A stretch of DNA of 64,000 nucleotides, taken from NCBI GenBank assembly GCA_964550175.1, contig CAZJXP010000001.1, positions 248,294-312,293 of the forward strand. The letters run 5' to 3'. This DNA comes from an uncultured Methanosarcinales archaeon. Lineage in GTDB: Archaea > Nanobdellota > Nanobdellia > Woesearchaeales > ARS49. The notes under the pieces are model-generated. The model searched no databases, was not told the origin of the DNA, and saw only the letters and a list, made by a program, of their open reading frames with translations. A program made the position numbers and the translations under genes. Positions 966 through 63,340 of this stretch are shown piece after piece (position 1 is the first letter of the stretch; each line of letters starts with the position of its first letter).

Positions 966-976
966 TTTTGCTAGCA

Positions 977-1071
977 CGTTTCTTTTTACCGGCACGTTTT
1001 GTTTCGTCGTTACGTTAAGCAATTTATTTACAATAAAACTAACACTACGACCAATATCGCTGGTAAAAATG
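977..1071. repeat. MITE-like interspersed repeat copy (TIR ctttttaccggcacg ... cgctggtaaaaatg)
   Basis: Inverted motif at 977-995 and direct motif CGACCAATATCGCTGGTAAAAATG at 1048-1071. Homologous to copies at 2361, 10643, 41491, 51273 and 63224. Confidence 0.6.
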
Positions 1072-1089
1072 TAGCGAGGAAAAGCAAGA

Positions 1090-2281: not shown

Positions 2282-2360
2282 TGAAACGATAGGTTAGAAG
2301 TGGGTTTATAAGGGTTTCCCTGAACGTTCGTCGTTGGACTTTCTGCGCTTTTCTGCTTTC

Positions 2361-2492
2361 CACGTTGCTCTCCCCGGCAGATATCTCGAACGTTGCGTTC
2401 GAGAATTTTCGAACCGAGTTCGAAATTTTTGAGTTCGCGTGAGGTCGTAGATGATTAATGCCAACACTCGACCAATATCGCCGGTAAAAAGT
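2361..2492. repeat. interspersed repeat copy (CACGTTGCTCTCCCCGGCAGAT ... CGACCAATATCGCCGGTAAAAAGT) containing two adjacent 7-bp-stem hairpins
   Basis: 5' block shared with 7134, 10661 and 41491. The 3' 24-mer is identical to 63291-63314. Internal palindromes are TCGAACGttgCGTTCGA and TTCGAACcgaGTTCGAA. Confidence 0.6.
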
Positions 2493-2567
2493 TTGCCTGG
2501 GACGCAATCATTGGGCTTCCAGAATGTTTAAATAGCGTAAAAGAAATCAACTGAAACAGGTGATACC

Positions 2568-6830: not shown

Positions 6831-7124
6831 GTGAAAGGAAAAACAACGCCGTTATTGCGGGATTGCCCTGAAAAACTTCAGTTCAAGACCGCGCACGGCC
6901 AGGTGCTACGGAACTACGTGGACCTGATTGACGGACTGAAACGAATGGAGGATTCGACGTTTCGGCACCACGTGAACGAAGGAAGGAATGACTTCCGGAA
7001 CTGGGTGCTGCACGTGTATTCGGATGAGAAGCTGGCGAAAGACTTCGAGCACAATCCGACTCGACTCGGAATGGCGCAGAATACTTCACGTCGATTGAAG
7101 AATCTCGCTATGGAGCATGGATGA
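6831..7124 (+). CDS. hypothetical protein, paralog 1 of a three-gene tandem family
   Basis: GTG start 5 nt after the GH57 stop, with RBS aggtga. Shares the motif L..Y.DLIDGL..M.D.TF..HVN.GRNDF..W with the next two genes. Confidence 0.6.
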   Translation: MKGKTTPLLRDCPEKLQFKTAHGQVLRNYVDLIDGLKRMEDSTFRHHVNEGRNDFRNWVLHVYSDEKLAKDFEHNPTRLGMAQNTSRRLKNLAMEHG

Positions 7125-7133
7125 TGGTTTTTG

Positions 7134-7164
7134 ACGTTGCTCTCCCCGGCAGATTTTGTAGAGT
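7134..7164. repeat. partial interspersed-repeat copy (GACGTTGCTCTCCCCGGCAGATTTTGTAGAG)
   Basis: Matches the 5' block of the repeats at 2361 and 41491. Confidence 0.5.
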
Positions 7165-7296
7165 CGTTACGCAAATAGTTAACAACGACTCAAAATCTGC
7201 AAGGACGAACCAACGACGCGACAGCAAACGTGCGGGAACAGCAACGCAACAAGCTTTAAAAACAGCAAAAATAATGACTCAGCAAAGAGGTGTGGA

Positions 7297-9251: not shown

Positions 9252-9463
9252 AATTGGTATGACTGAGATAGACTATTTAAAGGTTGCCCTTGTAATGGTC
9301 GATCACGATATTTGATGTGAATATATAACCACACAAACTAGAACCGCAAATCTTCCGCTTTTTCCGGAAAGTTTTCGGTTTTTCTCGAGCAAACGTTATG
9401 AATTCTGTTTGGTTATGTTTGTTCATGAGCGAAACTTTAATAAGTAAGCCCTGCCTTACCGAA

Positions 9464-9718: not shown

Positions 9719-9966
9719 CCATAAGCATTCTGCCGGCAGCAGAAAAGTTTCTCCGCAAATGCGAAAAAGAGCTATTTCTTCGCCTACGCGAACGCATTTA
9801 TTCCCTTGAACATAATCCGTTTCCTCCTGATTGCGAACGCCTAAAAAGCAAAGAAAAAATCTTCAAGGTACGCGTTGGCGACTACAGGATATTCTATGAC
9901 TACTTCTCTGAAACACTCATCATCTTGAGAATCAGAAAACGGGATAATGCCTACTTGAATGACTAA
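9715..9966 (+). CDS. relE: RelE/ParE-family toxin
   Basis: 83 aa. KVRVGDYRIFYDY...LIILRIRKRDNAY matches the RelE/StbE core. ATGA overlap with the antitoxin. Confidence 0.75.
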   Translation: MTISILPAAEKFLRKCEKELFLRLRERIYSLEHNPFPPDCERLKSKEKIFKVRVGDYRIFYDYFSETLIILRIRKRDNAYLND

Positions 9967-12311
9967 CGCTTGTTCGCAAAGACAAATTGGTAGTCCTTGC
10001 CTTCTAACAACGTTATGAGCGCGTTCTCGTACGGGAAGAACGTGTAGGTCGCGGATGGTAATGAATCTAAGTTTATTCTTTCCTCGTTCTGGATTTGGCT
10101 TATTACCGTGGCGTTTGTGGCTTCTAAGAAGTTCAATACTGGCTTTCCTGTGGCTACGAAATCCTTGAACTCCCAACGGTTCGTTCCCTTGTTGACGAAG
10201 AACCTGTACTCCATCATGAACGTGGTTTGGTCCTTGCCGAGAATTGCTTTTACTGTTGGACTGCCGACGTTTTCAACTGTAACACCGGTAAACGCCTTGA
10301 AATTGTCGATGCACTTGATTGTTCTGGCTTTCGTATCCTCTCCTACGTCTAATTCTATTCTTTCTAATGGTAATTGGTTGTCAACCCCTTGGAGGTAGTC
10401 GAAGGCGGTTGTTGGCGTGGTTTGGAACGGGGTTTGCAAGGCGAGATGACCTCCTTGGAGGCCTAATACTTTCAAGGTGTCTTCGCCCGCGAGTTTAAGA
10501 CAGTTGTTGACGTACTCTTGCACGGTTGATTCTGATTTTACTACAATATGGTCTGGGACTGTGATGAAAAGCAATAACATGGCTACGGCTAAGATTACGA
10601 CGCCTAAGAGCATGAAGATGGTTAATTGGCCGCGGGATGAGCGTTTACTTTTTTTACCACTGCTGACCCCGGCAGATTTTGAGTTAGTGGCTCGATTGAG
10701 CTTTGAATGATGGCCTAAACGCGTCCAATCTTGGCGGTAAAAAGTCTTGCCGGGGCGCGACATGGCAACTCCGGCTAATATCACCGCGAACGAAGCGAAC
10801 AGCAACGCGTGAACTGAAGTGAGATGCTTGATTAATTCTGCAATCTTACTGTGTCCTGCGGGGTAGACGGTCAAGACAACCCCATTCCTCTGGTAATCAA
10901 CCGTGTTGTCGTCCACTTTCATGACCGAAGGGCTGTACGCGGTGCGGTAAGACTTGATCCAGGACTGCGTGAGCTTTTCTTTGGTTATCTTGTCGTTGAT
11001 GGTGAGCAAGCGTTCGGTTGACGTTCCATGCTGGATGGCCTCTTCGATGGTTATGTAGTTGCTGACGACCGTCTTGTACGGAGGGGCGTCGTTCAGGATC
11101 AAGACGTCGTTGATGAACGCGTTGTCCTTGTCGAACGTCAGGATGGCTTTCGCGTCCTTGTTGCCCGTTGTGAAGAACGTGACCAATCCTTCCGACTTGC
11201 CGTCCTTCTTTATTTGTGGCTTGTTGAGGTCGACGATTCCCCTGATTTCCAACGCGTGGTTCGGAAGGTCGAAGATCGAGCAGGACTTGCAGGACTTCAC
11301 TTCAGGCGGGAACGCGTCGGAGTCGGACTTTCTCAGGAAGATATCGTGATTGTCCTGCCAGGCACGGATGCTGAAGTCTTTAGTTGCGTCCTTCGCATCA
11401 TAGGTGTACAACGTGACGGGCTCCATATGGATGTGCTGCATCCCGTCAGTTCTTGAGACTTCGACCTTTGCGGAATTGTTAGATTCTACTGTTTCCGTTA
11501 TTCCGTTCTTTTCCAATTCGATTTGGACATCTATTAGGTCTAATACGGTTGTTGTGGTGCTCTTTGAAATGACTAAAGAGGAATCATCTGAGAGAGACTT
11601 GAAATCGTACTGGTTCGTCGAACAGTCCTTGATCTTGAATTCGGAATCCTTATCCGCGTCGATGGTCACGTCGGTTTTAGCCGTAATCTTCGCGTTTTCA
11701 ACATCTTCCATGTAAACGCAGCTCGCCCAGACGGAATCTGCTTTCTTTACGTCAATCGTCTTGTCGCAATAATTGACTTTATCGAGCTTAGTTGCGATAG
11801 TGTCGGTTTCTACGAGAGAATCGGCTGTGTCGGCGGTTAAACAACCATTTTCGTATTTTACATTCTTGCCGTTGGTGATGACTATGGGGCCTTGCTGGAG
11901 GGAACCGACGGAAGCGATTGAGTAGCCGCCGCCTTGGACAGAAACGCCCGTTACATCAGCAGCCTTGCCAGAACCTTTCGGAGTATCCATACTTTTTGCG
12001 TATGTTAAATGACCACTTGCATCAACTTTCCCGCCAACAACATGCGTGAAAACATTACCATCAGCATCCGTAAATTTGTCCGTATCAACATTATAGGATC
12101 CATCAGGATTTTTGGTTGCCGTACCACCTTCATAAGTGGCGCCATTGGCATCTTTAGCCATTGTGTCAGGAGTAATATCTTGTTTCACACCAGCATCGCC
12201 ACCTCCACCCGGACCATCACTTGGAGGAGGAGTTGTTCCATCAGCGATTACTGCGACTGAAAGTAAAAGTAGAACAACAAGTAGTATAGGGATAACACCT
12301 CTTTTACTCAT
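9963..12311 (-). CDS. large secreted surface protein, with signal peptide and internal hydrophobic anchors; an interspersed repeat lies in frame at 10643-10746
   Basis: N-terminal signal MSKRGVIPILLVVLLLLSVAVIADG. A TM segment plus basic tail (LLFASFAVILAGVAMSRPGK) is typical of an archaeal C-terminal anchor. It is followed by repeat-encoded sequence and then a second TM segment. The 782-aa ORF may really be two genes, roughly 10750..12311 and 9963..10640. Confidence 0.55.
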   Translation of the reverse strand: MSKRGVIPILLVVLLLLSVAVIADGTTPPPSDGPGGGGDAGVKQDITPDTMAKDANGATYEGGTATKNPDGSYNVDTDKFTDADGNVFTHVVGGKVDASGHLTYAKSMDTPKGSGKAADVTGVSVQGGGYSIASVGSLQQGPIVITNGKNVKYENGCLTADTADSLVETDTIATKLDKVNYCDKTIDVKKADSVWASCVYMEDVENAKITAKTDVTIDADKDSEFKIKDCSTNQYDFKSLSDDSSLVISKSTTTTVLDLIDVQIELEKNGITETVESNNSAKVEVSRTDGMQHIHMEPVTLYTYDAKDATKDFSIRAWQDNHDIFLRKSDSDAFPPEVKSCKSCSIFDLPNHALEIRGIVDLNKPQIKKDGKSEGLVTFFTTGNKDAKAILTFDKDNAFINDVLILNDAPPYKTVVSNYITIEEAIQHGTSTERLLTINDKITKEKLTQSWIKSYRTAYSPSVMKVDDNTVDYQRNGVVLTVYPAGHSKIAELIKHLTSVHALLFASFAVILAGVAMSRPGKTFYRQDWTRLGHHSKLNRATNSKSAGVSSGKKSKRSSRGQLTIFMLLGVVILAVAMLLLFITVPDHIVVKSESTVQEYVNNCLKLAGEDTLKVLGLQGGHLALQTPFQTTPTTAFDYLQGVDNQLPLERIELDVGEDTKARTIKCIDNFKAFTGVTVENVGSPTVKAILGKDQTTFMMEYRFFVNKGTNRWEFKDFVATGKPVLNFLEATNATVISQIQNEERINLDSLPSATYTFFPYENALITLLEGKDYQFVFANKR
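10643..10746. repeat. complete MITE-like repeat copy located in frame inside ORF 9963..12311
   Basis: TTTACTTTTTTTACCACTGCTGACCCCGGCAGATTTTGAG...CCAATCTTGGCGGTAAAAAGTC, with an internal hairpin GCTCgattGAGC. Confidence 0.6.
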
Positions 12312-12344
12312 AATTAAAGAAACAGACGAGACGTTATTTAAAGC

Positions 12345-13460
12345 TTACTTCTTCTCATACTCAACTTTGGACCATCGTTCTTTCTCAGTTCGTTTATTTT
12401 GTGAGCGCCAAACAAAGGAACCATTGGGTGCTGTGAGGTTCGTACTTGCCCAATATTTACAAATGTCACGCGCCCACGCTTTAACATATTTTGTTTCTTG
12501 AGGGGCACCTGCAAGAACGTCAAGAACCTTTATCTTACCATCATTTTTCTCAGGTGTTTCACCTTTTACGACATCATATTTAGCAACAATGAACAAGGAA
12601 GGTTCAGCAATAGAACCAAACTGTTTCATGACCTCCTTCAGATCATCTTTGACCGCAGTGTTCTCCGCATCATACACTTTAAGCGGCACACCCAAAACCT
12701 TACTCGCATACTTTGCAAGAATGGCAGAACGAATGGATAAAATTGTTGCATTATCTTTTCCATTAAAATCACACATTAATACAAGACTTTTATCATCTTT
12801 CAATTCAGCAATTTCTTTTGCAAATTCTCCTTTCCCGATATAAGACACTTTAGCATCACTAGCAAAATCTTTGTCATCAAAAACTTCTTTCGCGGTTTTG
12901 TATTTTGCTTCAAGTTTTTGGGCTAAATCATCGGTAAAATCATCGATATTCACTTCTTTAACATCTGCTTGTATTTTCGGGTCTTCTGCGTATACTCGTG
13001 GTGTGTTTAGTCCTGAGAATCCGAATGCGGTGGTTGTGAGTATGGCTGCGTAGGCGATGTTGTTACGTGCTTTGTGCCAGAATGATTTCTGTAAAGGCAC
13101 TTGTTCTGCGTTTTGTATTGCGTTGTCGATGCTCATGATGATTCTTGCCTTGTACGTTTCGTACTGTTTTGCCCGCTTTTGCCCTTTTTGGTCGGGCAAT
13201 CCTAATGACAAATGTTCTTTGAATAGTGTGATGTCTTGCCTGAACACGTCTAGCCAAACAACGGCTGTTTCTGCGTGTTTGCGAGCCGTTCCGGTGACGT
13301 TCTGTGTTACCGTGACTGCTGCAGTGCGCAACAGCTCAATCTCCTGCAAAACGGTTTGAGCGTCTTGCAAGGTCATGTTCGCAAACCGCAAATCTCGGCG
13401 GCGCGAACTTAATGTTTTGACTCCGTTGCTGACCGACTTGAGCTGGCGAAACACATCCAT
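12345..13460 (-). CDS. hypothetical membrane-associated protein
   Basis: 371 aa with one TM segment (IAYAAILTTTAFGFSGL) and no recognisable family. Confidence 0.5.
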   Translation of the reverse strand: MDVFRQLKSVSNGVKTLSSRRRDLRFANMTLQDAQTVLQEIELLRTAAVTVTQNVTGTARKHAETAVVWLDVFRQDITLFKEHLSLGLPDQKGQKRAKQYETYKARIIMSIDNAIQNAEQVPLQKSFWHKARNNIAYAAILTTTAFGFSGLNTPRVYAEDPKIQADVKEVNIDDFTDDLAQKLEAKYKTAKEVFDDKDFASDAKVSYIGKGEFAKEIAELKDDKSLVLMCDFNGKDNATILSIRSAILAKYASKVLGVPLKVYDAENTAVKDDLKEVMKQFGSIAEPSLFIVAKYDVVKGETPEKNDGKIKVLDVLAGAPQETKYVKAWARDICKYWASTNLTAPNGSFVWRSQNKRTEKERWSKVEYEKK

Positions 13461-13654
13461 GTCAAGATGGACGTATTACGACTATATAAAACAAATCAGT
13501 ATATAATTGTTATGACTGTTTTCGTCGATGATGGACATGAAAACAGCAGAATTCGCCTTTTTGCCCCTTATAAATGACCTTAAAATCTATATAAAATATA
13601 TAAATTATAAGGACAATTAATATATACTTCCTTTAGCTCTATCTTTACTACTTA
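13461..13654. promoter_or_regulatory. AT-rich divergent promoter region with several TATA-like boxes
   Basis: ctatataaaaca, ttataaatga and atatataaatta lie between divergently oriented genes. Confidence 0.4.
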
Positions 13655-14290
13655 ATGGTGGTGTTGAGGGAAGACAAAATGAGCTTAACGTCCATTGTTC
13701 AAAACACCATACGTAAAACAAGCCCGGTAATCGCCAGACGACTGTGCGACCGATCTCTCGCAAAGGCGCGTTCTTCTGCTAAGGAGTATGTTCGCCATAA
13801 AGATGAATTCCGGCTCTACCTCCAATTCTGTGAACGCGCCCAACCGTCAAGATATGATGACTGGCAAATGAATTACAATATCCGCAAATACCAAGAAACT
13901 GCACAAGACCTTGTCGAACGCACCAACCACAAATATGCCCGCGCAAGAGCGTGGGAAACACGCCAAGAGGTCGCGGAAGAACGCCTCGTCTTTTATACAG
14001 GCACGGCACACGTTCTCGCAAATTGCCCGGTCGAACGCCTCCTCCATTACCGCACGCTCGTTGAAGATGTGCGCAGTATCGCTCCCACTTCAACAGTGCT
14101 CGGCAAAGTAGACGAAAAAATCATTGGAGAAGGCACCTGCGACAAACACGACACGCAAGACCACATTACCATGTTCAAAACAGCAGGCTATGAAAAGGAA
14201 GCAAAAGCGCTCGCGGCGCTCTACGCAGAACAAATCATGCACGACCAACCACAACGCGCATGGGAATTCATGAAACAGACCATGGCTTAA
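13655..14290 (+). CDS. hypothetical protein
   Basis: 211-aa ORF with no recognised motifs. An alternative start is at 13679 (MSLTS). Confidence 0.5.
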   Translation: MVVLREDKMSLTSIVQNTIRKTSPVIARRLCDRSLAKARSSAKEYVRHKDEFRLYLQFCERAQPSRYDDWQMNYNIRKYQETAQDLVERTNHKYARARAWETRQEVAEERLVFYTGTAHVLANCPVERLLHYRTLVEDVRSIAPTSTVLGKVDEKIIGEGTCDKHDTQDHITMFKTAGYEKEAKALAALYAEQIMHDQPQRAWEFMKQTMA

Positions 14291-14337
14291 ATCTGAATAA
14301 CCACCACAATAAAACATAAAATCACGAGAGGATAAAT

Positions 14338-15297
14338 ATGAAAACAAGATTTCCGGGAATCTCAGCATTGGTGAGGTGTAAAGATGAAGGCGATTCGGTA
14401 TACGCAAGTTTATTTTCAATAAAAGATCTTGTTGATGAAGTTGTCTTTGTTGACAATGAATCGGTGGATAATAGCATTGCCGAAGCTGAAAGATTTAAGA
14501 ACGATCATTTCAAAGATAAAAACTTCATTATTCGCCCTTATGCACACAGTGTTGCAGGAGGCAATCATCTTGCGGACATGAATAATTTTGCCTTATCCTT
14601 GACTTCAACCGAGTGGGTTATGAAGTGGGATGTTGACACTATTGCGTACACTGCGGGAGAAAACTCCATCTTAAAGCTCAAAGAACGCGTATTCGCTAAC
14701 GGTTCTCCTGTGGACATTATAAGATACAGTTTTTTTAATCTCTGGGGTGATTATTTCCATTGCCTGCAAGCAAGATTCGGCGATCCTGAATATGGCCCGA
14801 CTGGTTGCGGATTGGAGTTGCAAGGTTGCGAAAAAAGACTGTATCGGTATGATGATGATATTCATTTTGAAATGGAACGTTATGCTGAACACTTTTGGGA
14901 AGCTATGCGAGTACCTCTTACCTATAAAGAAATGCAGTTAAGTATTGTGCCTGGCGTACACTTGCAGACGGTTAAACCTTCAAGCTTGGTCGGTCGTAGA
15001 TTTTTTCTTACGCGCTTTACACCAGGTGAGCGAGAAAAATATGGAAGTTTTACGAAATTTGTGCAACATGAGCTACGAGAAGCAAATTGTCCTTCTCTTG
15101 AGCTTTTCGGCAAAAAACTCATTATTGATGAAGTGAATGTACGTGGTACAAAGTTCAAACAGCCGCATCCTGATACAATGTACCAATTGGGTTTGATGAA
15201 AGAACTCCCATATGAACTCATTTTTGATGAAACTAACGTCTGCGTTGATAGAAAAGAACGAAATGCAGCACACGATTACTTGAGGGATGGAGAATGA
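14338..15297 (+). CDS. glycosyltransferase family 2-like (GT-A fold)
   Basis: N-terminal ISALVRCKDEGDSV...VVFVDNESVDNS fits the GT2 pattern (I..TYNE...VDDGSTD). AT-rich codon usage. Confidence 0.7.
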   Translation: MKTRFPGISALVRCKDEGDSVYASLFSIKDLVDEVVFVDNESVDNSIAEAERFKNDHFKDKNFIIRPYAHSVAGGNHLADMNNFALSLTSTEWVMKWDVDTIAYTAGENSILKLKERVFANGSPVDIIRYSFFNLWGDYFHCLQARFGDPEYGPTGCGLELQGCEKRLYRYDDDIHFEMERYAEHFWEAMRVPLTYKEMQLSIVPGVHLQTVKPSSLVGRRFFLTRFTPGEREKYGSFTKFVQHELREANCPSLELFGKKLIIDEVNVRGTKFKQPHPDTMYQLGLMKELPYELIFDETNVCVDRKERNAAHDYLRDGE

Positions 15298-16388
15298 ACT
15301 TATTATTTTGCCTTCATTCATTTAACATTAATGGAGTATTAAACCAGAATCTTTCATTAGCAAAACACATTCTGAAGAAACTGCCTGATGTGCGCATTAC
15401 GGTCATTGCACCAACAAAGAAAGAGGGGATGCTTGCATATCTCGCATTAGGAATTGATGCGAAAGCGATAAATCCTGCAACCGATAAGGATGGGTTCAAT
15501 ACTTTGGCAAATGGGTCACATGACGCTATTTTATTTGAGTCGTTATTTTCATTAAATTATTATGGTAGTTTATTGGCCGGCAATCAAAAAAAATCTGTAT
15601 TGCACATTCATGAAGAGTTGCCTCTCACCCATAAAAGCGACTTATGGAATGTTGATGCAAAATCAATAGATGATTATTTTTCAGAACTGGTCAATTCTAC
15701 AGTTATATTTTCGGGTCAAAAAAGTCAACTCCATTATTCAAAAAAGCTCTTGGAATACAAGATTCAATCGCATGTTATCAATAATGTGGTTGATGTTGAT
15801 AAGTTTAAAGCAATAAAAAGGAGGGACGATGGCGCATTTAATATTGTTCAAGTAGGGACAATCTATGAGCGCAAAGGAGCAATACAAACATTCGAAGCAT
15901 TCAACATATTATTGAAAAAATATTGCATTGAAAATGCAAACCTCGTCTTCGTAGGGGCACGTAAAGGAAAACCTGCCGAAGAAGATTATGTGCAGCAACT
16001 AGTCAAAAGAACAAAGCTGCTGCACTTGGAAGATCAGGTTAAAATAGAACCGGTAATTACTGAACCAAGCAAATATTACGAAAATGCTTCGGTTGTAACA
16101 CTTCATTCTCAATCAGAATCTTACCCCACAGTATTTCTTGAAGCATGTTATTTGGGAATTCCGTTTGTGGGAAGTGTTGTTGGATGTTCTCAAGAGATGG
16201 AACGCAAATACGGAAACGCACTATTATTTCCCATTGGGGATATTGAAAAACATGCACAATGTTTGCACCAAATTTACGAATCTCAATTTCCTGAAAAGAA
16301 AATGACCCGGGAACAGTTAGAAGTACATTTTGAAAATAATCACGATAAAATGATAACTCGGTTGCTCTTGAAAAATGGAAACTCTTGA
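15294..16388 (+). CDS. glycosyltransferase family 4 (GT-B fold)
   Basis: C-terminal ESYPTVFLEACYLGIPFVGS is the E-x7-E GT4 motif. Confidence 0.75.
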   Translation: MNLLFCLHSFNINGVLNQNLSLAKHILKKLPDVRITVIAPTKKEGMLAYLALGIDAKAINPATDKDGFNTLANGSHDAILFESLFSLNYYGSLLAGNQKKSVLHIHEELPLTHKSDLWNVDAKSIDDYFSELVNSTVIFSGQKSQLHYSKKLLEYKIQSHVINNVVDVDKFKAIKRRDDGAFNIVQVGTIYERKGAIQTFEAFNILLKKYCIENANLVFVGARKGKPAEEDYVQQLVKRTKLLHLEDQVKIEPVITEPSKYYENASVVTLHSQSESYPTVFLEACYLGIPFVGSVVGCSQEMERKYGNALLFPIGDIEKHAQCLHQIYESQFPEKKMTREQLEVHFENNHDKMITRLLLKNGNS

Positions 16389-17658
16389 AGAAAAAATAGA
16401 CTTGCGCATAGAGCAGGAAACAGAATTGGTATTCCAAGCGTATATTACGAATGACGTCATGACCGGCATGGCAAGAGACGAAGTGACTCAATTAGCAAAG
16501 AAGTCGAAGAATAGGGTTCTTGCTGATAGTGGTGTAATGATGCAAATCATGCAAGAAGCAGAAGAAGCATACATAAAATCTTTAGCAAATGTGAACGAAG
16601 AACTCGCTGAAGAATATGTCCGCATTAAAAAAAGTGCTTGTCCGATTGAAGCTAAAAAAACAATATTTTCTGAATGCAAAAAAACATTAGATGATGTCAT
16701 TTTCAAAAGAAAATTCATTGAAGCCAGAATTAGTCTGAATCTTGATCGTGACGCTCAGCACATTAAATCTTCGATTAAACAAGTACTGTTGCGTGATTAT
16801 AGGGACCTCGTGAGTGGTTTAACAAGGAGTTACGCATCGATGAACAGTGATGGTGAAGCAAACAAATTTATTGAGTTTTTACTTGATTTTAGTCAAGACA
16901 GCACGGGTATTTTATACGAACGTGAATTTAGACGAATCCTTGCTGACAAAATGAAACCGGCAGATATTTTGATTTACAAATGCTTGCGGTTCACCCATGA
17001 TGAAGGTCATCTTAATATCTGTCCTCATTTAGACGATTATCGCACTCAGGATATCAATGGAAAGCCAGTTATGTTTAAAGGAGCTTCAGACACGTATCAA
17101 CTCAAAAAAATATTGTATCTTGCCAAGCACCTGAAAAAATATTCCGGAAGTAAACAACCAATTCTGATTGTGGCTGATGGTGATATGTTTAAGTATGGCC
17201 CTGAAAAATATGCCGAGTTCAGCAGCAAAATACACGAGTATTTAGTAGAGATACGAGCTTATTGCCCCGCCTTAGATGTACGTTTAGAAACTGAATATTT
17301 CGACAACCAACAAGAATACAAAGAACTTGAAAAACGGGTTAAAAGTTCAATTCTACAGCACCAAAACGACTATATCGCGCCTGAAGAAACCCAAAGAATT
17401 ATTGAAGATTACGCGTCACGATTCCGTGCTATGCTTAAAGACTGGACGATTGAAAAAAATCAATATTACTCGGTTACGTCTATTTCCCGTAACATCGCTC
17501 AGGGAATGTTTTTATCCTATGAAAAACGTAAGGCAATTGTAGTTGTATTCAATAATCCTGATAGTACTGGCGCAAGATTTAATCTGAAAACGGAAGAGAA
17601 AGTGCCATTTATCGGGTATCCTAAGTTGTCATCCAAAGTGGTGAATAACAATGACTGA
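16375..17658 (+). CDS. hypothetical protein (427 aa) within the AT-rich glycosyltransferase island
   Basis: Long ORF with no family motif recognised by eye. Overlaps both neighbours. Confidence 0.55.
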   Translation: METLEEKIDLRIEQETELVFQAYITNDVMTGMARDEVTQLAKKSKNRVLADSGVMMQIMQEAEEAYIKSLANVNEELAEEYVRIKKSACPIEAKKTIFSECKKTLDDVIFKRKFIEARISLNLDRDAQHIKSSIKQVLLRDYRDLVSGLTRSYASMNSDGEANKFIEFLLDFSQDSTGILYEREFRRILADKMKPADILIYKCLRFTHDEGHLNICPHLDDYRTQDINGKPVMFKGASDTYQLKKILYLAKHLKKYSGSKQPILIVADGDMFKYGPEKYAEFSSKIHEYLVEIRAYCPALDVRLETEYFDNQQEYKELEKRVKSSILQHQNDYIAPEETQRIIEDYASRFRAMLKDWTIEKNQYYSVTSISRNIAQGMFLSYEKRKAIVVVFNNPDSTGARFNLKTEEKVPFIGYPKLSSKVVNNND

Positions 17659-18436
17659 TATTTCGCGTCACCATAATGATGTCAAAATCACGCAGAAGAG
17701 GGTCACTAAAAAGTTTACTGAAGAAAGTGGATTAGAACGAGAACTCGCGGCGGCAACACTCTTGGGTGATCAGATCCCCCTTGCGAGGATAGTGAGAATT
17801 GACCGGGCGAAAAACGCACTTATTTTTGAAAGATTTATGTACGAGTCAGGAATTGACAAGGACCCTTGTTTAAGATTATGTGAAATCGCTCGCATCTTAA
17901 AAAAGCTGCATTCTATTAGTTGTGCCAATAGTAATCTGGAAGATGCGCGTTTCCCGTTGCAAGATTTTGCTGGAACGCTTACAGCTCATGTCAGAAATAA
18001 ATATATTCATGGTCTTGCAAAATCAGGGTATTCCGTCCCCGCTGAGAATCTGCTTGACCTCGGATTAGCATTAACCCCGAAAAAATTTAGTTATGTTCAT
18101 AATGATGCGAAATGCCGACATTGTTTTTTTGATAAAAATAATCAGCTTAAAGGAATAATTGATTTTGAATACTTTGGTCTTTTTGATCCTCTTGTAGATA
18201 TAGGTAGCATTGCCGCCGATGTATTTGAATCTAATCCAAATGAGTTCAAAACGTATACACGCGCCTTTTTTGGTGAATATGGTCTTCAGGAACGGGACAA
18301 ACGTTCCGTCTTGTTTTACATGATTACGAGCAAACTCACTCAAGCGCTCAATATAGATTTGCCTTCGGGTAAAGAAAAAGACGCAAAAAAGGCACTCCAG
18401 TTAGTAAATACTTTCTCTCAAATGCAAAACCTTTAA
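17651..18436 (+). CDS. APH/choline-kinase-like phosphotransferase (small-molecule kinase fold)
   Basis: Catalytic loop VHNDAKCRHCFF and metal-binding IDFEYFG are the Brenner and DFG-like motifs of the APH family. Confidence 0.65.
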   Translation: MTDISRHHNDVKITQKRVTKKFTEESGLERELAAATLLGDQIPLARIVRIDRAKNALIFERFMYESGIDKDPCLRLCEIARILKKLHSISCANSNLEDARFPLQDFAGTLTAHVRNKYIHGLAKSGYSVPAENLLDLGLALTPKKFSYVHNDAKCRHCFFDKNNQLKGIIDFEYFGLFDPLVDIGSIAADVFESNPNEFKTYTRAFFGEYGLQERDKRSVLFYMITSKLTQALNIDLPSGKEKDAKKALQLVNTFSQMQNL

Positions 18437-18457
18437 TATATTCAAATACTTGAAATA

Positions 18458-19147
18458 ATGATGACAGGGACCATATTTCTTTCCGGAGGGGGTAATTCAA
18501 TAATTTATAAAGATTTTGACAATGCTCTATCGAAAAAAATTGCCGGTGGTAAAATATTGTGTATTCCTTTTGCTAATCAAAAAAAGAGCCGGGAAGAACA
18601 TGTCGACTGGATGAATCGAGTATTCAATAAATTTCAAAAGAGCAAAATACTGATTGTCAAGAATGTAGCTGATTTGAGAAAAATTAAAATGAACACGCTC
18701 GCACTAGTATATATCTCAGGAGGAAATACTTTTCAACTTCTAAAAAAATTAAACGTAGAAGGGATCAACATGCTAAGAGAATACTATGCGAAAGGAGGCA
18801 CTATTTATGGAAGTAGCGCCGGTGCAGCAGTGCTAGGAACGAGCATTCTAACAGCAAGTATTGATGATACCAACAAAGTACATATCGATAGTACTAATGG
18901 TTGTAATCTCATAAACGGATATTCAGTATATTGTCACTATAAGAAAGACGACCAGTGGAAATTTGATATTTTTATCAATGAACATCGGATTAAAAAAATA
19001 TTAATCTTGCCGGAAGGATCAATTATCTCCATCCAAAATAAATCCGTGCGTACAATTAAAAATACAGCGTATAAAATTAGTGCTAAAGCCAACTTAGAGT
19101 ATCAAATAAAAAAAATAAAAAAAAGAATTACTTCAATTCATACGTAA
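18458..19147 (+). CDS. peptidase S51 family (dipeptidase E or cyanophycinase-like)
   Basis: YISGGNTFQLLKKL and GSSAGAAVLG carry the nucleophile Ser, characteristic of S51. Confidence 0.75.
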   Translation: MMTGTIFLSGGGNSIIYKDFDNALSKKIAGGKILCIPFANQKKSREEHVDWMNRVFNKFQKSKILIVKNVADLRKIKMNTLALVYISGGNTFQLLKKLNVEGINMLREYYAKGGTIYGSSAGAAVLGTSILTASIDDTNKVHIDSTNGCNLINGYSVYCHYKKDDQWKFDIFINEHRIKKILILPEGSIISIQNKSVRTIKNTAYKISAKANLEYQIKKIKKRITSIHT

Positions 19148-19871
19148 TACTAACCGTCTTCTGGACAGAGACGTCTGAAGGGATGACTTCGACGGCTTTC
19201 GCGATGCTGCCTTCGGCCATCATCGTGTCGCGGCCGTACATCGGCCACGGGTAGTAGTTGTCGCTTTCCTGGATTGACAACACCTTGCCGAGCTTTGCGC
19301 CGGCGGTTGCCGTAAGAGACTCAGCCTTCTGCTTCGCGTCCGCAACAGCAAGTGCGCGGACTTGGTTGTCGTACTGCTTCCGCAATTCGTCCGTCAGGCC
19401 GAACTGCACGTTCTGGATCAGCCCGTTCTGGCCGCCAATCGCCTCAACGACGGCTCCTGTTTTGGTCAAGTCCTTGACCGTCACTTGGATGCTGTGCGTG
19501 CCTCGGTAGCCCTTGATGGTCTGCTGGCCCGTTTCAGGATTCCATTGATAGTCCGGGTAGACATTGAACCCGGTGGTCTGGATGTCCGCATCGGTGATGC
19601 CCTGCGCCCGGATGGCTGAGAGAATCCTGTCCGTGCTCTTGCTCAACGTTTCTTGAGCGGAGCTCGCGTCCATGCCCGTGCTTTCAACAAGCACCCAGAT
19701 GTCCGCCTTGTCAGGGGACACTTTCATGTCGCCGAGACCGGAGACTGAAATCACATTTTGCGTGCTCGTTCCTTGGTTCTGGTACATCACGAACGCGACG
19801 AGGAGGATTGCTGCGATCGCGACGATCCAGGGTAAGTTGTTTTTTTCCATTTTGATCACCTTTTTGACCAT
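19128..19871 (-). CDS. SIMPL/DUF541 family protein with N-terminal membrane anchor
   Basis: TM at the N-terminus. VSGLGDMKVSPDKADIWVLVES and overall similarity to the SIMPL 26-kDa periplasmic protein family. Confidence 0.7.
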   Translation of the reverse strand: MVKKVIKMEKNNLPWIVAIAAILLVAFVMYQNQGTSTQNVISVSGLGDMKVSPDKADIWVLVESTGMDASSAQETLSKSTDRILSAIRAQGITDADIQTTGFNVYPDYQWNPETGQQTIKGYRGTHSIQVTVKDLTKTGAVVEAIGGQNGLIQNVQFGLTDELRKQYDNQVRALAVADAKQKAESLTATAGAKLGKVLSIQESDNYYPWPMYGRDTMMAEGSIAKAVEVIPSDVSVQKTVSITYELK

Positions 19872-19923
19872 AATTCACCTGTTTATATATAAGCTCGGAT
19901 TTTATAAGGCTGTTGCCTTAGGA

Positions 19924-20484
19924 TTATCGCAAGAACTGGCTGTATTTCTTCCTTTGATAGTACGAATAGCTTAACATTCCTATGAGCAAAGCAAGCCAGA
20001 CGACGTACACGATGACGCCGAGACTGAGTTGATACGTAGCTCCGGTCTGTGCCGCGTCCATAGCTAAAGACGTTCCAGGCGCCGCTTCCATCGTTAACGC
20101 TAACGAGTCGGCCGACTTCATCGCGACCGGCGGGTTAAGCAACGGCTCGACAAACGGACGGATGTACGCGACAGCTCCGGCGACGGCGGTCAAAATCAGT
20201 AACGACAACGTGATAAGAATGCGCTGCTGCTCCGGGTCGAGAATCGCTTTGCATTTAGCGGTGAGCTCGTAATACTTCCACTTACGGCCGTCATCCTTCT
20301 TGACAATCAATCCAGCCTTCAACAGTCCGGCGAGATGCTCGTTGACGGACGGCTCCTTCATTCCTAACGAAACGGCCAGCTCCGACTGCATATGCCTTCG
20401 TTGCTGCAAGAGCTTCAGAATCTTGATCCTTGTCTCTGCCGCTAACGCCTTGAAGCTTTCCCGGTCGAGGGTTATCGAATCCAT
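19924..20484 (-). CDS. ArsR-family wHTH transcriptional regulator fused to two C-terminal TM helices
   Basis: FKALAAETRIKILKLL...MQSELAVSLGMKEPSVNEHLAGLLKAGLIV is the ArsR HTH. Two hydrophobic segments follow. Confidence 0.75.
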   Translation of the reverse strand: MDSITLDRESFKALAAETRIKILKLLQQRRHMQSELAVSLGMKEPSVNEHLAGLLKAGLIVKKDDGRKWKYYELTAKCKAILDPEQQRILITLSLLILTAVAGAVAYIRPFVEPLLNPPVAMKSADSLALTMEAAPGTSLAMDAAQTGATYQLSLGVIVYVVWLALLIGMLSYSYYQRKKYSQFLR

Positions 20485-29840: not shown

Positions 29841-29883
29841 AAAACAGTCTAAGCGATTGTTTTTTAGGTGCGTTTCGCAGGAA

Positions 29884-29930
29884 AAACCGGAAGATTTGCG
29901 GAAAAAGCGGAAGAATTGCGGAAAATCGCT
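29884..29930. repeat. 2.5 tandem copies of a 20-bp direct repeat (aaaaagcggaagaattgcgg)
   Basis: ccggaagatttgcgg aaaaagcggaagaattgcgg aaaatcgc. Lies upstream of, or in the extended 5' end of, the subtilase gene. Confidence 0.5.
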
Positions 29931-29997
29931 TGGCTCCAATATAAAGAAAACGCTAACTCTAACGACGAAACAAAACGGGGCGGTAAAAAGTTTACGT

Positions 29998-36642: not shown

Positions 36643-37058
36643 TAGTGCAAATACCCCTGAATCAATCCTAGTGTGTACGCAACGACCTTCTCATGCTCCC
36701 CTTCCCAGTGCGGCGGAACGCTGCGTTCAGCGATAAACCCCACATTCATGAGAATATCCGTCGCAGCCTCGGCAAGAATGCGCGCCTCAAGCATGTCGTT
36801 CGTTTTCAGACAGTGATCCCGAATCGGCTCCAACATGTCGTCACCATACTCCAGCAACCAACGATAGCCCTCGCAGTCTTTGCGACGAGCCATATCCCCG
36901 TTATGCTGAAAAGTCGCAGCATGTTGGTCTAACAGCTTGAACGCAATCGCAAATTTTTCGCAGGACGATTCGCTCAACTGCACCCCATTGAATTCCCGCA
37001 GTTCAGGCACTTGTAGCACGAACCGTTTCTTACAGTCACGTGGCCGCAGGAAGAGCAA
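36642..37058 (-). CDS. hypothetical protein, start uncertain
   Basis: The ORF overlaps the nrdJ 3' end by 85 nt. A TTG at 36977 preceded by ggggtg, or the ATG at MARRK, would remove the overlap. Confidence 0.35.
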   Translation of the reverse strand: MLFLRPRDCKKRFVLQVPELREFNGVQLSESSCEKFAIAFKLLDQHAATFQHNGDMARRKDCEGYRWLLEYGDDMLEPIRDHCLKTNDMLEARILAEAATDILMNVGFIAERSVPPHWEGEHEKVVAYTLGLIQGYLH

Positions 37059-40736: not shown

Positions 40737-41441
40737 TCATTTCGCCAGCTTCCACAGCAGCTCGAAGTACGCCTGATACGTCTGCGCGACATCCTTGTTC
40801 TTGATGAGAATAGCAACGGGCTCGGCACTCCACATAATAATCGCGACCTTGTCGCCGTAGATGTTCGTGCTTACGGGGGAAGCGAACTCGTCCGGCAGAT
40901 GGCGGACCTCACCGAGCGGGATGGGCTCCAGGTTTGTGCGCTTACCCGCGTAGATAAGATGAAGCTTGATCTTTTTCGCGACTCGCTTGGTCGTGTAATG
41001 CCCGAGATAATACTTCAGGATTTCCGGGGCGTTCTTGGCCGCGCCCATGATGAACACGTCCTTGCCCACGACTAACTGGTCCTCGAAAATAGTCTTGATT
41101 CCTTCCACGCCGCGGTAAAAGACGGTTTCCTGTTTTTGCTTGGCTTCGTCGAACTTTGATTTGAGCGTGGGTAAAATGTTGTTTATGCCTTGTTCTGTCT
41201 GTTTCGCCAATTCCGAGAGCCGTTGCGGGTCTGCTGGAGTGTAGAACCGCTTGTCGTTCTCCTTGATGTAAGAAACTAAACCCTTCTCGATTAATCGCTC
41301 TAGCGCGTCGTAGACGCTCCTTCGGTGGATGCCGGTCTTCCGCGAGATGATGCCTGCCTGCGCTCGCCCTAAATCGATCAACGTGACGTAGATTTTCGCT
41401 TCGGTTGACGTGAGTCCTAATGGCACCAGCTTTTCGAACAT
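40737..41441 (-). CDS. trmB: TrmB-family sugar-responsive transcriptional regulator
   Basis: N-terminal wHTH (LTSTEAKIYVTLIDLGRAQAGIISRKTGIHRRSVYDALERLIEKGLV) plus a TrmB C-terminal domain. The remainder of the long ORF to 42428 is antisense to ogg. Confidence 0.8.
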   Translation of the reverse strand: MFEKLVPLGLTSTEAKIYVTLIDLGRAQAGIISRKTGIHRRSVYDALERLIEKGLVSYIKENDKRFYTPADPQRLSELAKQTEQGINNILPTLKSKFDEAKQKQETVFYRGVEGIKTIFEDQLVVGKDVFIMGAAKNAPEILKYYLGHYTTKRVAKKIKLHLIYAGKRTNLEPIPLGEVRHLPDEFASPVSTNIYGDKVAIIMWSAEPVAILIKNKDVAQTYQAYFELLWKLAK

Positions 41442-41490
41442 GAGGGAATGAGATTCCCACAGATATATAATTGTGCCGTCTGAGTTCCTT

Positions 41491-41582
41491 TCACGTTGCT
41501 CTCCCAGGCAGTTATTGTAGAGTTTCGGCCATAATTCTAGATACAATGGAGCCACTACTTCCAAACTGGGCGGTAAAAAGTT
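41491..41582. repeat. interspersed repeat copy (CACGTTGCTCTCCCAGGCAG ... CTGGGCGGTAAAAAGT)
   Basis: Shares both blocks with the copy at 2361. Confidence 0.55.
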
Positions 41583-41630
41583 AACTTTGACATGATAAAC
41601 TTTAAGTAGCTCGCGCAACGAAGCCAGACC

Positions 41631-42404
41631 ATGAACATCACAGTCAAGGACTTCAACCTCGCGGACACGGTCGAGTCCGGCCAACTGTTCCGCTGGGAGA
41701 AGAAAGGAAACGGCTATGTTATCCGCAACGGCGGGAAATCGTTCTACGCCGAACAGGAAAATCCGAAGACGCTCTCGTTCGACGGCGTCGATGAGCCGTT
41801 CATCCGCGAATTCTTCGACCTCAGCACGGACTACGGCAAGATAAAGAAGACGATTTCGGCTGAAAAGCTCGCGCCCATCATCGAAAAGCATCCCGGCATA
41901 AGGATCGTCAGGCAAGACCCTTGGGAATGCACCATCGGGTTCATCTGCAGCTCGAACTCGAACATCACGCGCATACGGAACAACATGAACTCGCTGACGA
42001 CGTGTTTCGGCAAAGGACATGTGTTCCCGATGCCGTCGGACATCAAACAAGGAGCAAAGCTCGACAGCTGCAGACTCGGCTACCGGGCGGAGTACGTGCG
42101 CAGCATCAGCAAGCAAATAACCCCGGAATTCCTGCACTCGCTCAAAAATGAAAATTATGCAAACGCGAAAGAAAAACTGATGGAATTGCCCGGTATCGGC
42201 CCGAAAGTCGCGGACTGCATCTGTTTGTTCGCGCTTGGGTTCACGGAGGCGTTCCCGGTAGACACACACATCCAGCAGGCGATGGCCGCGATGTACGGCG
42301 TCGAAAAAGAGAAGGAAATTCGGGCGTTCGCGGCGAAGAAATGGGGCAAGCTCGCGGGCTACGCACAGCAGTACATCTTCCACTGGCGGAGAACAACATC
42401 GTAA
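41631..42404 (+). CDS. ogg: 8-oxoguanine DNA glycosylase / HhH-GPD family (archaeal Ogg type)
   Basis: LPGIGPKVADCICLFALG and FPVDTHI (HhH-GPD with catalytic Asp). Confidence 0.8.
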   Translation: MNITVKDFNLADTVESGQLFRWEKKGNGYVIRNGGKSFYAEQENPKTLSFDGVDEPFIREFFDLSTDYGKIKKTISAEKLAPIIEKHPGIRIVRQDPWECTIGFICSSNSNITRIRNNMNSLTTCFGKGHVFPMPSDIKQGAKLDSCRLGYRAEYVRSISKQITPEFLHSLKNENYANAKEKLMELPGIGPKVADCICLFALGFTEAFPVDTHIQQAMAAMYGVEKEKEIRAFAAKKWGKLAGYAQQYIFHWRRTTS

Positions 42405-50140: not shown

Positions 50141-50845
50141 ATGGAAAAGCTGTTTATCCACGCGCGTTCGGACGAGGACGTCACGTTAACTCCTGTAGCT
50201 GTTAAAGCGCTCAAAGGAAAGAAGGTCGGCATCGTGACGAGCATCCAATTGCTGCACGGCATCAAAGTCATCCAAGACCAACTTCCTGGCGCGATTGTTG
50301 CCGGACAAGTCCTGGGTTGCAACTCCTACAACGCGGAGAATATCGCGGCTTCTGTTGATTGTTTCCTCTTTGTCGGTTCGGGCGAGTTCCACCCGATCCA
50401 AGTCGCGATGCGAACGAAGAAGCCAGTGTATATTTTCAACCCCGCGACCAAAGAGTTCGGCACGCTCAAGCAGGAAACCATCGAGTCGTACGAAAAAAGA
50501 AAACAAGGAAGCATTCTGAAATTCTTATCTTCAGATAGAATCGGCGTGATTGTATCAACCAAAGCCGGCCAGAAGAACTTCAAGCGCGCGATGGAACTTG
50601 AAAAACGCACGGATAAACAGTATTTCGTTTTTGTTTCCGATACCTTGAACTTCAACGAGTTCGAGAACTTCCCTTTCATCCAGTGCTGGGTCAACACGGC
50701 TTGCCCTCGCATTGCGGATGAAAAACTCGGCATCGTCAACATCAACGAACTGATGGAAGCGAAAGCAATCACGTTCCCGAAAATCGAAGGCGGCTACGAG
50801 ATTCCTATCTGGATGTCGAAGAAAGGAATGAAGAAATCTGATTAG
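50141..50845 (+). CDS. dph2: diphthamide synthase Dph2-like, N-terminally short (two of three domains)
   Basis: GQVLGCNSYNA, FVGSGEFHP and WVNTACPRI align with archaeal Dph2 residues about 105-335. The domain carrying the first Fe-S Cys is absent. Confidence 0.7.
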   Translation: MEKLFIHARSDEDVTLTPVAVKALKGKKVGIVTSIQLLHGIKVIQDQLPGAIVAGQVLGCNSYNAENIAASVDCFLFVGSGEFHPIQVAMRTKKPVYIFNPATKEFGTLKQETIESYEKRKQGSILKFLSSDRIGVIVSTKAGQKNFKRAMELEKRTDKQYFVFVSDTLNFNEFENFPFIQCWVNTACPRIADEKLGIVNINELMEAKAITFPKIEGGYEIPIWMSKKGMKKSD

Positions 50846-51414
50846 ATAACGTTCGTCGTCATCTTTACGCCCGGAAACAAGTTGTGCTCCTTCGCGAACC
50901 CGGCTTCGACTTCCACGACGTACATCGCGGCCTTGTTCGTCGGATATGTCGCGCAAGGGCTCTTGTCGCACGGCGGCGTGTTTTCCTTGATCTCGTTCAC
51001 GGTGAACGTTTCGTCCAAGAAGATGATGTCCAACGGTATGAGCATGTCTTTCATCCAGAACGTGCGAGGAATGGATTCTTCAAAAACGAACAGCATCCCC
51101 TCGCCGGGTGCGAGCGTCTTGCCCATCAATCCAGCAGATCGTTCATCCGCGTCATCAGCGACCGCAACAAGAACGTTCACGTAGCCCTCGCCGTTGAAGA
51201 ACGTCACCTTCGGGTGCGGAGCGCAGGAGGCCAACAAAAGTAACGCGAATAGTACGAACGCTGTCCTTACACCACTTTTTACCGGCGAATTTTGAGTTGT
51301 CGTAGTAATCGTGTTACTCAAACGTCCAATCGGGGCGGTACAATCCGAATCCAGTGGGTTCGGATGTACAAGAGGACTTCGAGTCCTCTTTGTAAAAAGT
51401 TTACTCACGTCCAC
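50842..51414 (-). CDS. DUF192 (COG1430) family protein with lipobox (LLASCAP); 5' portion coincides with an interspersed repeat, true start uncertain
   Basis: The mature part (GEGYVNVLVAVADDADERSAGLMG...) is DUF192-like. The first 45 codons are encoded by repeat copy 51273-51404 and overlap the sppA 3' end. Confidence 0.55.
   Translation of the reverse strand: MDVSKLFTKRTRSPLVHPNPLDSDCTAPIGRLSNTITTTTQNSPVKSGVRTAFVLFALLLLASCAPHPKVTFFNGEGYVNVLVAVADDADERSAGLMGKTLAPGEGMLFVFEESIPRTFWMKDMLIPLDIIFLDETFTVNEIKENTPPCDKSPCATYPTNKAAMYVVEVEAGFAKEHNLFPGVKMTTNVI
51273..51404. repeat. interspersed repeat copy (inverted CACTTTTTACCGGCG ... GGGGCGGTACAA) followed by hairpin AAGAGGACttcgaGTCCTCTT
   Basis: Motifs and an 8-bp perfect stem seen directly. 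Confidence 0.5.
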
Positions 51415-63170: not shown

Positions 63171-63223
63171 TTCGGAATAAAAACCCCTTTTAAATGTTGC
63201 GGATGGGAATTTGCTGGCACCGC

Positions 63224-63315
63224 GTTACTTTTTACCGCCCAGTTTTGTTCCGTTACGGCATCAATTCTGAATACACTCGAGCTCACGGTACGACCAATAT
63301 CGCCGGTAAAAAGTG
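63224..63315. repeat. complete MITE-like repeat copy (GTTACTTTTTACCGCCCAG ... CGACCAATATCGCCGGTAAAAAGTG)
   Basis: 13-bp terminal inverted motif. The 24-mer is identical to 2469-2492. Internal hairpin CCGTtaACGG. Confidence 0.6.
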
Positions 63316-63340
63316 CGACGCAGAAAAGAGCTACCTGGGC

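Follow-up and report, generated by a model that had tools for sequence, protein, structure and literature searches.

Introduction

Repeats that are read as protein are already well known in bacteria, including Rickettsia, and in-frame fusions of transposable elements of the miniature inverted-repeat type (MITEs) have been documented for the Rickettsia palindromic elements (RPEs) and, more rarely, for ERIC, BOX and MITEs of cyanobacteria (PMC10969869). In a census of 8,220 archaeal genomes, 11% of the MITEs lay inside genes, and the density in one Woesearchaeal genome was 105 per Mb (PMC11602168); the Haloquadratum small mobile repeat SMR-A is ~110 bp long, with inverted terminal repeats, no target duplication and no known transposase, its mode of mobilisation being unknown (PMC3119063). 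Here we analysed 64,000 nucleotides of a woesearchaeal archaeon (assembly GCA_964550175.1, contig CAZJXP010000001.1, positions 248,294 to 312,293; hereafter the window, numbered from its first letter), where one copy of a small repeat family lies in frame inside the open reading frame (ORF) of a 782-aa membrane protein (hereafter the host gene, 9963..12311, minus strand). We consider it probable that a MITE-like element inserted in frame into a permissive basic linker of this protein, where it was tolerated, and that the gene product is one polypeptide. The locus is a clean archaeal example of a repeat read as protein; to our knowledge, such repeat-to-protein events have seldom been described in archaea with reduced genomes.

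The window family resembles the RPEs, as described by Ogata et al. (2000, 2002; summarised in PMC10969869), in being a short (~100–150 bp) element of inverted-repeat type that is read in frame in unrelated genes, at structurally permissive sites of a small reduced genome; two of the eight window copies are coding (35 and 45 codons). RPE families encode a conserved peptide in a preferred frame, whereas in the window the homologous frame (..TFYR..) is interrupted by one to four stops in 5 of the 7 other copies; coding is thus not what the family is built for. The host, which its nearest named relatives mark as Nanoarchaeota/Woesearchaeota-like, is moreover an archaeon and not an alphaproteobacterium, and a sequence relationship is not expected; thus the repeat is not an RPE by membership, but its behaviour is the same phenomenon.

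Like the MITEs of prokaryotes, including those of the archaea Sulfolobus, Halobacterium and Haloquadratum, the window repeats are small, non-coding, multicopy and mostly intergenic, with terminal inverted repeats, and their density of about 125 per Mb in the window is comparable to the 105 per Mb of the Woesearchaeal genome in the census (PMC11602168). Most of the MITE criteria apply, namely size (<~800 bp), terminal inverted repeats, dispersed copies and presence/absence. SMR-A is a close analogue in form (~110 bp, with conspicuous inverted terminal repeats and neither an evident target duplication nor a matching transposon); similarity in sequence is not expected, and SMR-A prefers other mobile elements (PMC3119063), whereas the targets in the window are intergenic DNA and two genes. 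We also considered an IS200/IS605-derived PATE and rejected it: terminal inverted repeats are present, and orientation was clear in only four copies, with no significant bias.

Results and discussion

A repeat copy in frame within the host gene

The in-ORF copy occupies 10641..10750 (plus strand in the orientation of the family model, with ends certain to within a few bases), and the host gene reads its reverse complement. When this copy was included in the model, nhmmer matched 10645-10748 with E about 1e-21; a leave-one-out profile from which it was excluded matched 10648-10745, nearly the whole copy, at model positions 4-107 (29 bits, E=1.5e-8). The copy has the end motifs GTTTACTTTTTTTACC... 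and ...GGCGGTAAAAAGTCTTGC, and its terminal repeats are imperfect, CTTTTTTTACCAC on the left and GGCGGTAAAAAG on the right with a 2-nt indel between them. Of the six frames of the copy just one has no stop, namely that of the host ORF, whose translation through 10643-10746 reads ...SRPGKTFYRQDWTRLGHHSKLNRATNSKSAGVSSGKKSKRSSRGQLTIFMLLG... An earlier note, made from the letters of this DNA, had described an in-frame repeat at 10643-10746 that is translated without a stop as part of the ORF (...HSKLNRATNSKSAGVSSGKKSKRSSRGQLTIF...), and the segment delimited below agrees with that description.

Alignment with relatives delimited an extra coding segment at 10641..10745 (minus strand) of 105 nt, codons 523-557, for which the predicted peptide is TFYRQDWTRLGHHSKLNRATNSKSAGVSSGKKSKR. 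These 35 residues are hydrophilic, with a net charge of +8 plus two His and no hydrophobic stretch, and the GC content of the insert is 0.46 vs 0.48 for the host gene. Reading the codons directly, we found that neither the element nor the stretch from it to the downstream RGQ motif has an ATG, GTG or TTG in frame, so a C-terminal domain that keeps its RGQ start needs read-through from upstream. A contig from a separate assembly (Logan, SRR13076528, L049) encodes the identical 782-aa product, which argues against a single-assembly artefact, though the reads may share a sample. A search with a 40-aa insert peptide returned no candidates, the source protein itself also not being returned. No stable single-strand fold shared across the family was found (z = -0.3 for the in-ORF copy), and the region had no Rfam match.

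The host gene begins with ATG and was defined from the ORF list, its relatives and an AlphaFold2 model. Its product comprises an N-terminal signal or anchor, a beta-rich N-domain, a first transmembrane helix (TM1), a loop, a second helix (TM2) and a C-domain. A Kyte-Doolittle scan gave three hydrophobic segments (residues 1-24, about 500-516 and about 563-582), the second being the putative TM1 (ALLFASFAVILAGVAM, 10764..10814, minus strand) and the third the putative TM2 (LTIFMLLGVVILAVAMLLLF, 10566..10625, minus strand). The RGQ motif (aa 560-562, 10626..10634, minus strand) directly precedes TM2 and is the counterpart of an N-terminal M-K-[KR]-G-Q in stand-alone homologs; with it begins the C-terminal domain (9966..10634, minus strand), which is homologous to a large stand-alone family of ~245 aa. 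The AlphaFold2 model has a mean predicted local distance difference test score (pLDDT) of 67, with helices at 488-516 and 560-581 corresponding to TM1 and TM2, and a pLDDT of 25-30 across residues 517-559 between them, where the chain is modelled as disordered. The protein had no match in Pfam, NCBIfam, PDB-sequence or PDB-fold searches.

The database protein P0001 is identical to the host protein, except that it starts 50 codons downstream at MAKDANG (732 aa). The region absent from P0001 (12162-12311, minus strand) encodes a hydrophobic N-terminal signal, MSKRGVIPILLVVLLLL, and a TATA-like box (CTTTAAATA, 12335..12343, minus strand) lies 24-32 nt upstream of the ATG at 12311, a spacing that agrees with the upstream regions of other window genes; these two features favour the 782-aa start at 12311 over the 732-aa start. 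Several relatives open with MK(K)RG plus a hydrophobic stretch, and from its sequence the N-domain may itself bear a prepilin-like signal. Directly upstream of the host gene there is a low-GC block (window 12000-20000; 0.38-0.42 vs about 0.50-0.55 elsewhere) with a glycosyltransferase, an APH-type kinase and several proteins without recorded family, which may be an acquired surface-modification island.

Relatives without the element

Relatives were sought among 5.8 billion protein clusters, and nine were full-length (40-53% identity, 735-760 aa, 92-100% query coverage), one of them named as a Nanoarchaeota archaeon. In the alignment all nine have an N-terminal signal or anchor, a large N-domain with conserved cysteines, TM1 and a short basic loop, and continue with [KR]GQ[LI][TS][IVM]F and TM2 into a C-domain of ~220 aa that ends in FVFANxR. 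The spacing from TM1 to RGQ is about 2-17 aa in the relatives vs 45 aa in the window protein, and only the latter has the additional loop residues (about 30-35); the residues invariant among relatives are preserved on both sides of the insert. Four relatives were fetched with flanking DNA (P0002, P0005 and P0007 among them; L045-L048), each of which is a single called gene, and a search of this DNA with the repeat model found no element DNA. The closest ortholog found (L057) belongs to the metagenome-assembled genome (MAG) GCA_964360075.1, is 72% identical in the N-part and 50% in the C-part, and reads ...VFGRRGQLSMF, with no element-coded residues adjoining the motif. This difference in identity suggests mosaic evolution or domain swapping.

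The same MAG has two copies of the host-type gene. The second copy (L001 7293-7383) has a stop after 430 aa and a remnant of ~30 aa, and a dNK gene stands in place of its C-half. A further protein, P0010, was considered as a close empty-site control (79% identity over the aligned N-terminal part) and was rejected, being a truncated copy without the loop.

These comparisons bear on the proposal of the earlier note that two genes had been fused by the insertion, i.e. that the element landed between adjacent genes, removed a stop and a start and joined both into one ORF. The N-part does end in a hydrophobic helix followed by basic residues, and the C-part begins where hundreds of stand-alone homologs begin (M-K-[KR]-G-Q), as a fusion by the element would have it; however, the nine relatives have the same architecture in one uninterrupted protein without the element, the fetched loci are single called genes, fused forms of 715-776 aa exist at greater distance, and the closest ortholog runs into RRGQLSMF without element-coded residues. 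Since the fused architecture occurs without the element in nine relatives, the fusion predates the insertion, and on this alignment the two-part architecture is older than the inserted segment, which is found in none of the nine. A fusion brought about by the element is thus extremely unlikely, and the alignment with relatives that lack the insertion, which the note had itself proposed as a check, contradicts it. The SRPGK that the note had taken as the end of an archaeal C-terminal anchor is not conserved, relatives being without it, and is no anchor signal.

The C-terminal domain and its prepilin-like motif

The C-part was searched with phmmer against 1.84 billion representative proteins (E<=1e-3), which gave 818 hits, most of them 230-260 aa long and with a match beginning at about residue 3. 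The stand-alone homologs (~245 aa) begin with MKKRGQITF..., MQKRGQLTVF... or MKKGQITIF..., and the family termini are an M-K-[KR]-G-Q-[ILV]-[TS]-[ILV]-F start and an FVFA(N/H)xR end (proteins P0137-P0150, locus L058). In one stand-alone gene (L058) the ATG is preceded, at a distance of about 25 nt, by a canonical TATA box, which indicates that the stand-alone homologs are real genes. A minority of the hits are fused, at 715-776 aa, behind an N-domain of ~510 aa that is beta-rich, with junctions of the kind ...RRGQISLF..., ...KKGQISIA... or ...RKGQLTVF...; P0143, P0148 and P0162 are among the more distant fused forms. We found no Pfam or NCBIfam model for the C-domain family and no profile match to pilin families. 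Because the C-part is homologous to stand-alone proteins that start at the same point, the host protein is a real fusion, but an old one that is independent of the element; the new N-terminus that the earlier note had seen downstream of the repeat is therefore a genuine family start, whose fusion to the N-part has nothing to do with the element.

The EpdB/C/D pilins of M. maripaludis have KGQL and KGQV processing sites (PMC4371748), and the internal [KR]-G-Q with its hydrophobic domain of ~20 residues agrees with these. After the insert, RGQLTIF followed by a ~20-residue hydrophobic stretch is like the archaeal class III signal peptides (PMC4371748), as are the N-termini of the homologs. Unlike such signal peptides, the host motif is internal, with a 560-aa region before it, and in contrast to EppA substrates it is without the typical +5 Glu; the likeness is one of sequence.

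An internal prepilin-like signal would be unusual. The 750-aa family could be a natural two-part precursor in which the RGQ and hydrophobic segment is a working class III signal, cut on the cytoplasmic side by prepilin peptidase, although we regard this as rather unlikely. If so, the cut would free a pilin-like C-domain from an N-domain anchored in the membrane, the repeat would have entered the N-region of the internal signal peptide, and its 35 residues would form the cytoplasmic tail of the N-fragment, which would explain why an insertion was tolerated at exactly this spot. The repeat family, with two of its eight window copies in frame within genes, would then be a lineage-specific archaeal counterpart of the protein-coding repeats of Rickettsia.

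The repeat family in the window

We detected eight copies of the family in the window by repeat finding, motif scans and alignment. They have the common ends (CGTWWA)CTTTTTACCGSC(A)GATTTTG ... CCAATnTnGSCGGTAAAAAG(TTTAC), are 68-148 nt long and contain no transposase gene. Six copies are intergenic. The copies at 975..1077 and 63221..63317 (both unstranded; copies 982 and 63228) are of a short type with a clear terminal inverted repeat, of 11-12 nt in the former; the copy at 2351..2498 (plus strand) lies between divergent genes and has two extra internal hairpins; the copy at 7123..7209 (plus strand) is a long hairpin made of the left half and the inverted complement of that half; the one at 29929..29996 (unstranded) is partial and matches the left half of copy 982 in inverted form at 82%; and the one at 41482..41585 (plus strand) lies between a TrmB-family gene (start ATG 41441) and an OGG gene (41631). 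In copies 982, 63228 and 51275 the two terminal inverted repeats, CTTTTTACCGSC ... GSCGGTAAAAAG, pair, and a longer left-end variant, ACGTTGCTCTCCCCGGCAGATTTTG, is common to copies 2358, 7130 and 41489 and, in diverged form, to the in-ORF copy. Leave-one-out E-values were <=4e-4 for seven copies, and only 0.008 for the partial copy 29942. A common orientation of all eight copies was considered and dropped, as leave-one-out profiles resolved the orientation of just four and one partial copy is probably inverted.

Searches for the family elsewhere gave only chance matches. The exact right-end 20-mer had single, evidently chance matches in 185,579 species-representative genomes (the source genome not among them), the exact left-end 19-mer had three chance matches in JGI metagenome contigs, and an exact-match probe of viral contigs and a similarity search of phage records returned nothing. 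Judging by these searches, the family looks restricted to the source lineage. A repeat of >200 nt in the Chlamydiales MAG CBDBKM01 (L023, L024, L043) has the 20-mer probe CCAATCTTGCCGGTAAAAAG and otherwise nothing in common with the family, and it was set aside as unrelated.

The copies occur after a gene end or after convergent genes, and also between divergent or tandem genes, while two lie within ORFs, and the element ends stand at no constant distance from start codons or stops; recognisable promoters lie outside the element (41441, 41631). This arrangement is difficult to reconcile with a non-mobile protein-binding or regulatory module of two boxes, with the in-gene copy arising by convergence or gene conversion. 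Such a module would fit the conservation of two end boxes with variable interiors, the lack of a detected target-site duplication or transposase, and the failure to recover copies with the exact-match probes (species-representative genomes, JGI metagenome contigs, viral contigs) or the phage similarity search; but it gives no reason for a copy in a loop-coding segment that all relatives are without, and one copy has nested insertions, as mobile elements often do. We consider a regulatory module very unlikely.

Two further observations concern individual copies. Extra short GC-rich hairpins are present at 51335-51395 (ATCCGAATCCAGTGGGTTCGGAT and AGAGGACTTCGAGTCCTCT) and at 2380-2425 (TCTCGAACGTTGCGTTCGAGA and TTTCGAACCGAGTTCGAAA); those in copy 51275 split the right terminal repeat (GGCGGTA|...|AAAAAG), and they may be a second, nested small element. 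In addition, a 563-aa ORF at 40737-42428 (minus strand) is a shadow ORF that runs antisense through the OGG glycosylase gene (41631..42404, plus strand) and the repeat copy 41482-41585 and then enters the real TrmB-family gene, whose true start at ATG 41441 lies behind a TTATATAT box.

A second in-gene copy in a DUF192 gene

The earlier note had also attributed the first 45 codons of ORF 50842..51414 to the same family, and this was borne out. An element with two nested hairpins occupies 51270..51404 (plus strand; 135 nt, 45 codons) within a DUF192 gene (50842..51414, minus strand; Pfam PF02643 at residues 83-186), in frame between the GTG start and a lipoprotein signal peptide, where it extends the 5' coding end. 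The GTG at which the 188-aa database protein P0014 starts overlaps the TGA (51405-51407) that ends the upstream S49 peptidase gene. In a relative (L053) the same junction has an ATGA stop/start overlap followed directly by MNKIALLVLLLLVSC, which represents the empty site. No start codon lies between the element and the signal peptide in the window, which leaves the boundary GTGs or a TTG within the element, so the 5' coding end is element-derived either way. N-terminal extensions of the DUF192 relatives P0015 and P0017 were considered as element-derived and rejected, as their alignment scores were not above those of shuffled controls; start calls placed too far upstream account for them better.

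A probable insertion into a permissive linker

We propose that a small non-coding element with terminal inverted repeats (MITE-like, about 90-150 bp) inserted, presumably by transposition, into a gene that was already single. It would have landed in the linker that joins TM1 to the RGQ + TM2 segment, a linker that is short, basic and variable in length; the RGQ + TM2 segment is the putative prepilin-like signal with which the C-terminal domain once began. The insertion would have survived because its length is a multiple of three (105 nt), it sits in the sole stop-free frame of six, its 35 strongly basic and hydrophilic residues (+8) suit a cytoplasmic loop, and the RGQ motif and both helices were left intact. 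Basic residues are favoured on the cytoplasmic side of membranes (the positive-inside rule). With the N-domain outside the cell the loop would be cytoplasmic, and the basic insert accords with this rule. Most likely, as far as the sequence indicates, the gene is still expressed as one 782-aa polypeptide and the element peptide would be a disordered cytoplasmic passenger, probably neutral. The cytoplasmic loop of the earlier note hence fits only as a tolerated in-frame insertion, not as a demonstrated exaptation.

Across all copies, 17 of 48 frames (about 35%) are open, and with a one-in-three chance for the length about 1 in 8 or 9 random coding insertions would keep the ORF; survival at a permissive site is thus plausible without a special mechanism. 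The same proportion of frames open by chance could also mean that the gene is dispensable and decaying and that its open frame is luck, disabling mutations not having arrived yet, and the host-type gene of MAG GCA_964360075.1 that stops after 430 aa and has lost its C-half (L001), a paralog or ortholog, points the same way. Against decay, the copies are old and diverged, yet the 2349-nt ORF is without frameshift or stop, the residues invariant in relatives are kept on both sides of the insert, and a good TATA box is kept; we find it hard to believe that the gene is in decay.

Several observations weigh against a tolerated MITE-like insertion. Pairwise identity of the copies is only 42-66%, with conservation concentrated at the ends; the element boundaries, and with them the inserted length, are uncertain by a few bases. 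We inspected the flanks for a target-site duplication and found no consistent direct repeat, the ends being fuzzy and the sole empty-site comparison (L053) involving a DUF192 protein that is 78% identical. Nowhere in the window did we find a transposase with matching ends; every end-motif match there belongs to one of the eight short copies. In these respects (no target-site duplication found, no parent insertion sequence or transposase in the window, unusually diverged interiors) the family differs from typical MITEs, and mobility is inferred only from presence versus absence: the element is missing from the loop of the nine relatives, beside RGQ in L057 and at the S49/DUF192 junction in L053, all of them fairly distant relatives. 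The nearest ortholog, L057, has a 10-N scaffold gap inside TM1 (L057 1964-1975), and we found no really close relative (>90% identity) with an empty site.

The last point of this kind concerns expression. Oligo-T tracts are archaeal termination signals, and the two element ends supply the only T5 run (10739-10743) and the only A7 run (10649-10655) that the sense strand of the 2349-nt host gene contains; the T5 run could trigger some premature transcription termination in archaea, and the element may reduce expression of the downstream half of the host gene. Taken further, the T5 run might end many transcripts and the A-rich end might act as a weak TATA-like box 29 nt before ATG 10613, which is roughly the TATA-to-start spacing of other window genes; a terminator-like hairpin with a T-run at 10762-10748 (minus strand) points in the same direction. 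We consider such split expression improbable, as GGTAAAAAAAGTAAAC is unlike the TTTAWATA-type boxes upstream of window genes, a transcript that ended at the T5 run would lack a stop codon, and other copies stand at no consistent position relative to downstream starts. Of the two products that it predicts, an N-part with an element tail and a C-part starting MLLGVV..., the latter would miss the RGQ and the basic N-region conserved in all 818 homologs. A tolerated insertion in a gene that yields a single polypeptide remains the explanation that we favour.

Other features of the window

A 41-nt motif, CCGCAAATCTTCCGCTTTTTCCGGAAAGTTTTCGGTTTTTC, at 9344-9384 has an inverted copy (88% complementary) at 29881-29921, and both lie just upstream of starts, that of a MazE-type antitoxin at 9398 and that of an S8 protease at about 29839; the motif could be a shared operator or another repeat. 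We also found two ribonucleotide reductase large-subunit-like genes within 10 kb (29998-31758 and 36974-40045, both minus strand), one with an ATP-cone and a partial barrel match, the other of class II with a TSCPD domain.

Implications

The locus shows where insertions of this kind can survive, namely in a basic, disordered linker on the putative cytoplasmic side. It is also a warning for annotation, as the window contains a database start that looks too far downstream, a shadow ORF and a second gene whose N-terminal extension derives from the repeat. Of greater interest, as a by-product, is the host protein, in which the second half of an old fusion opens with an internal prepilin-like signal.

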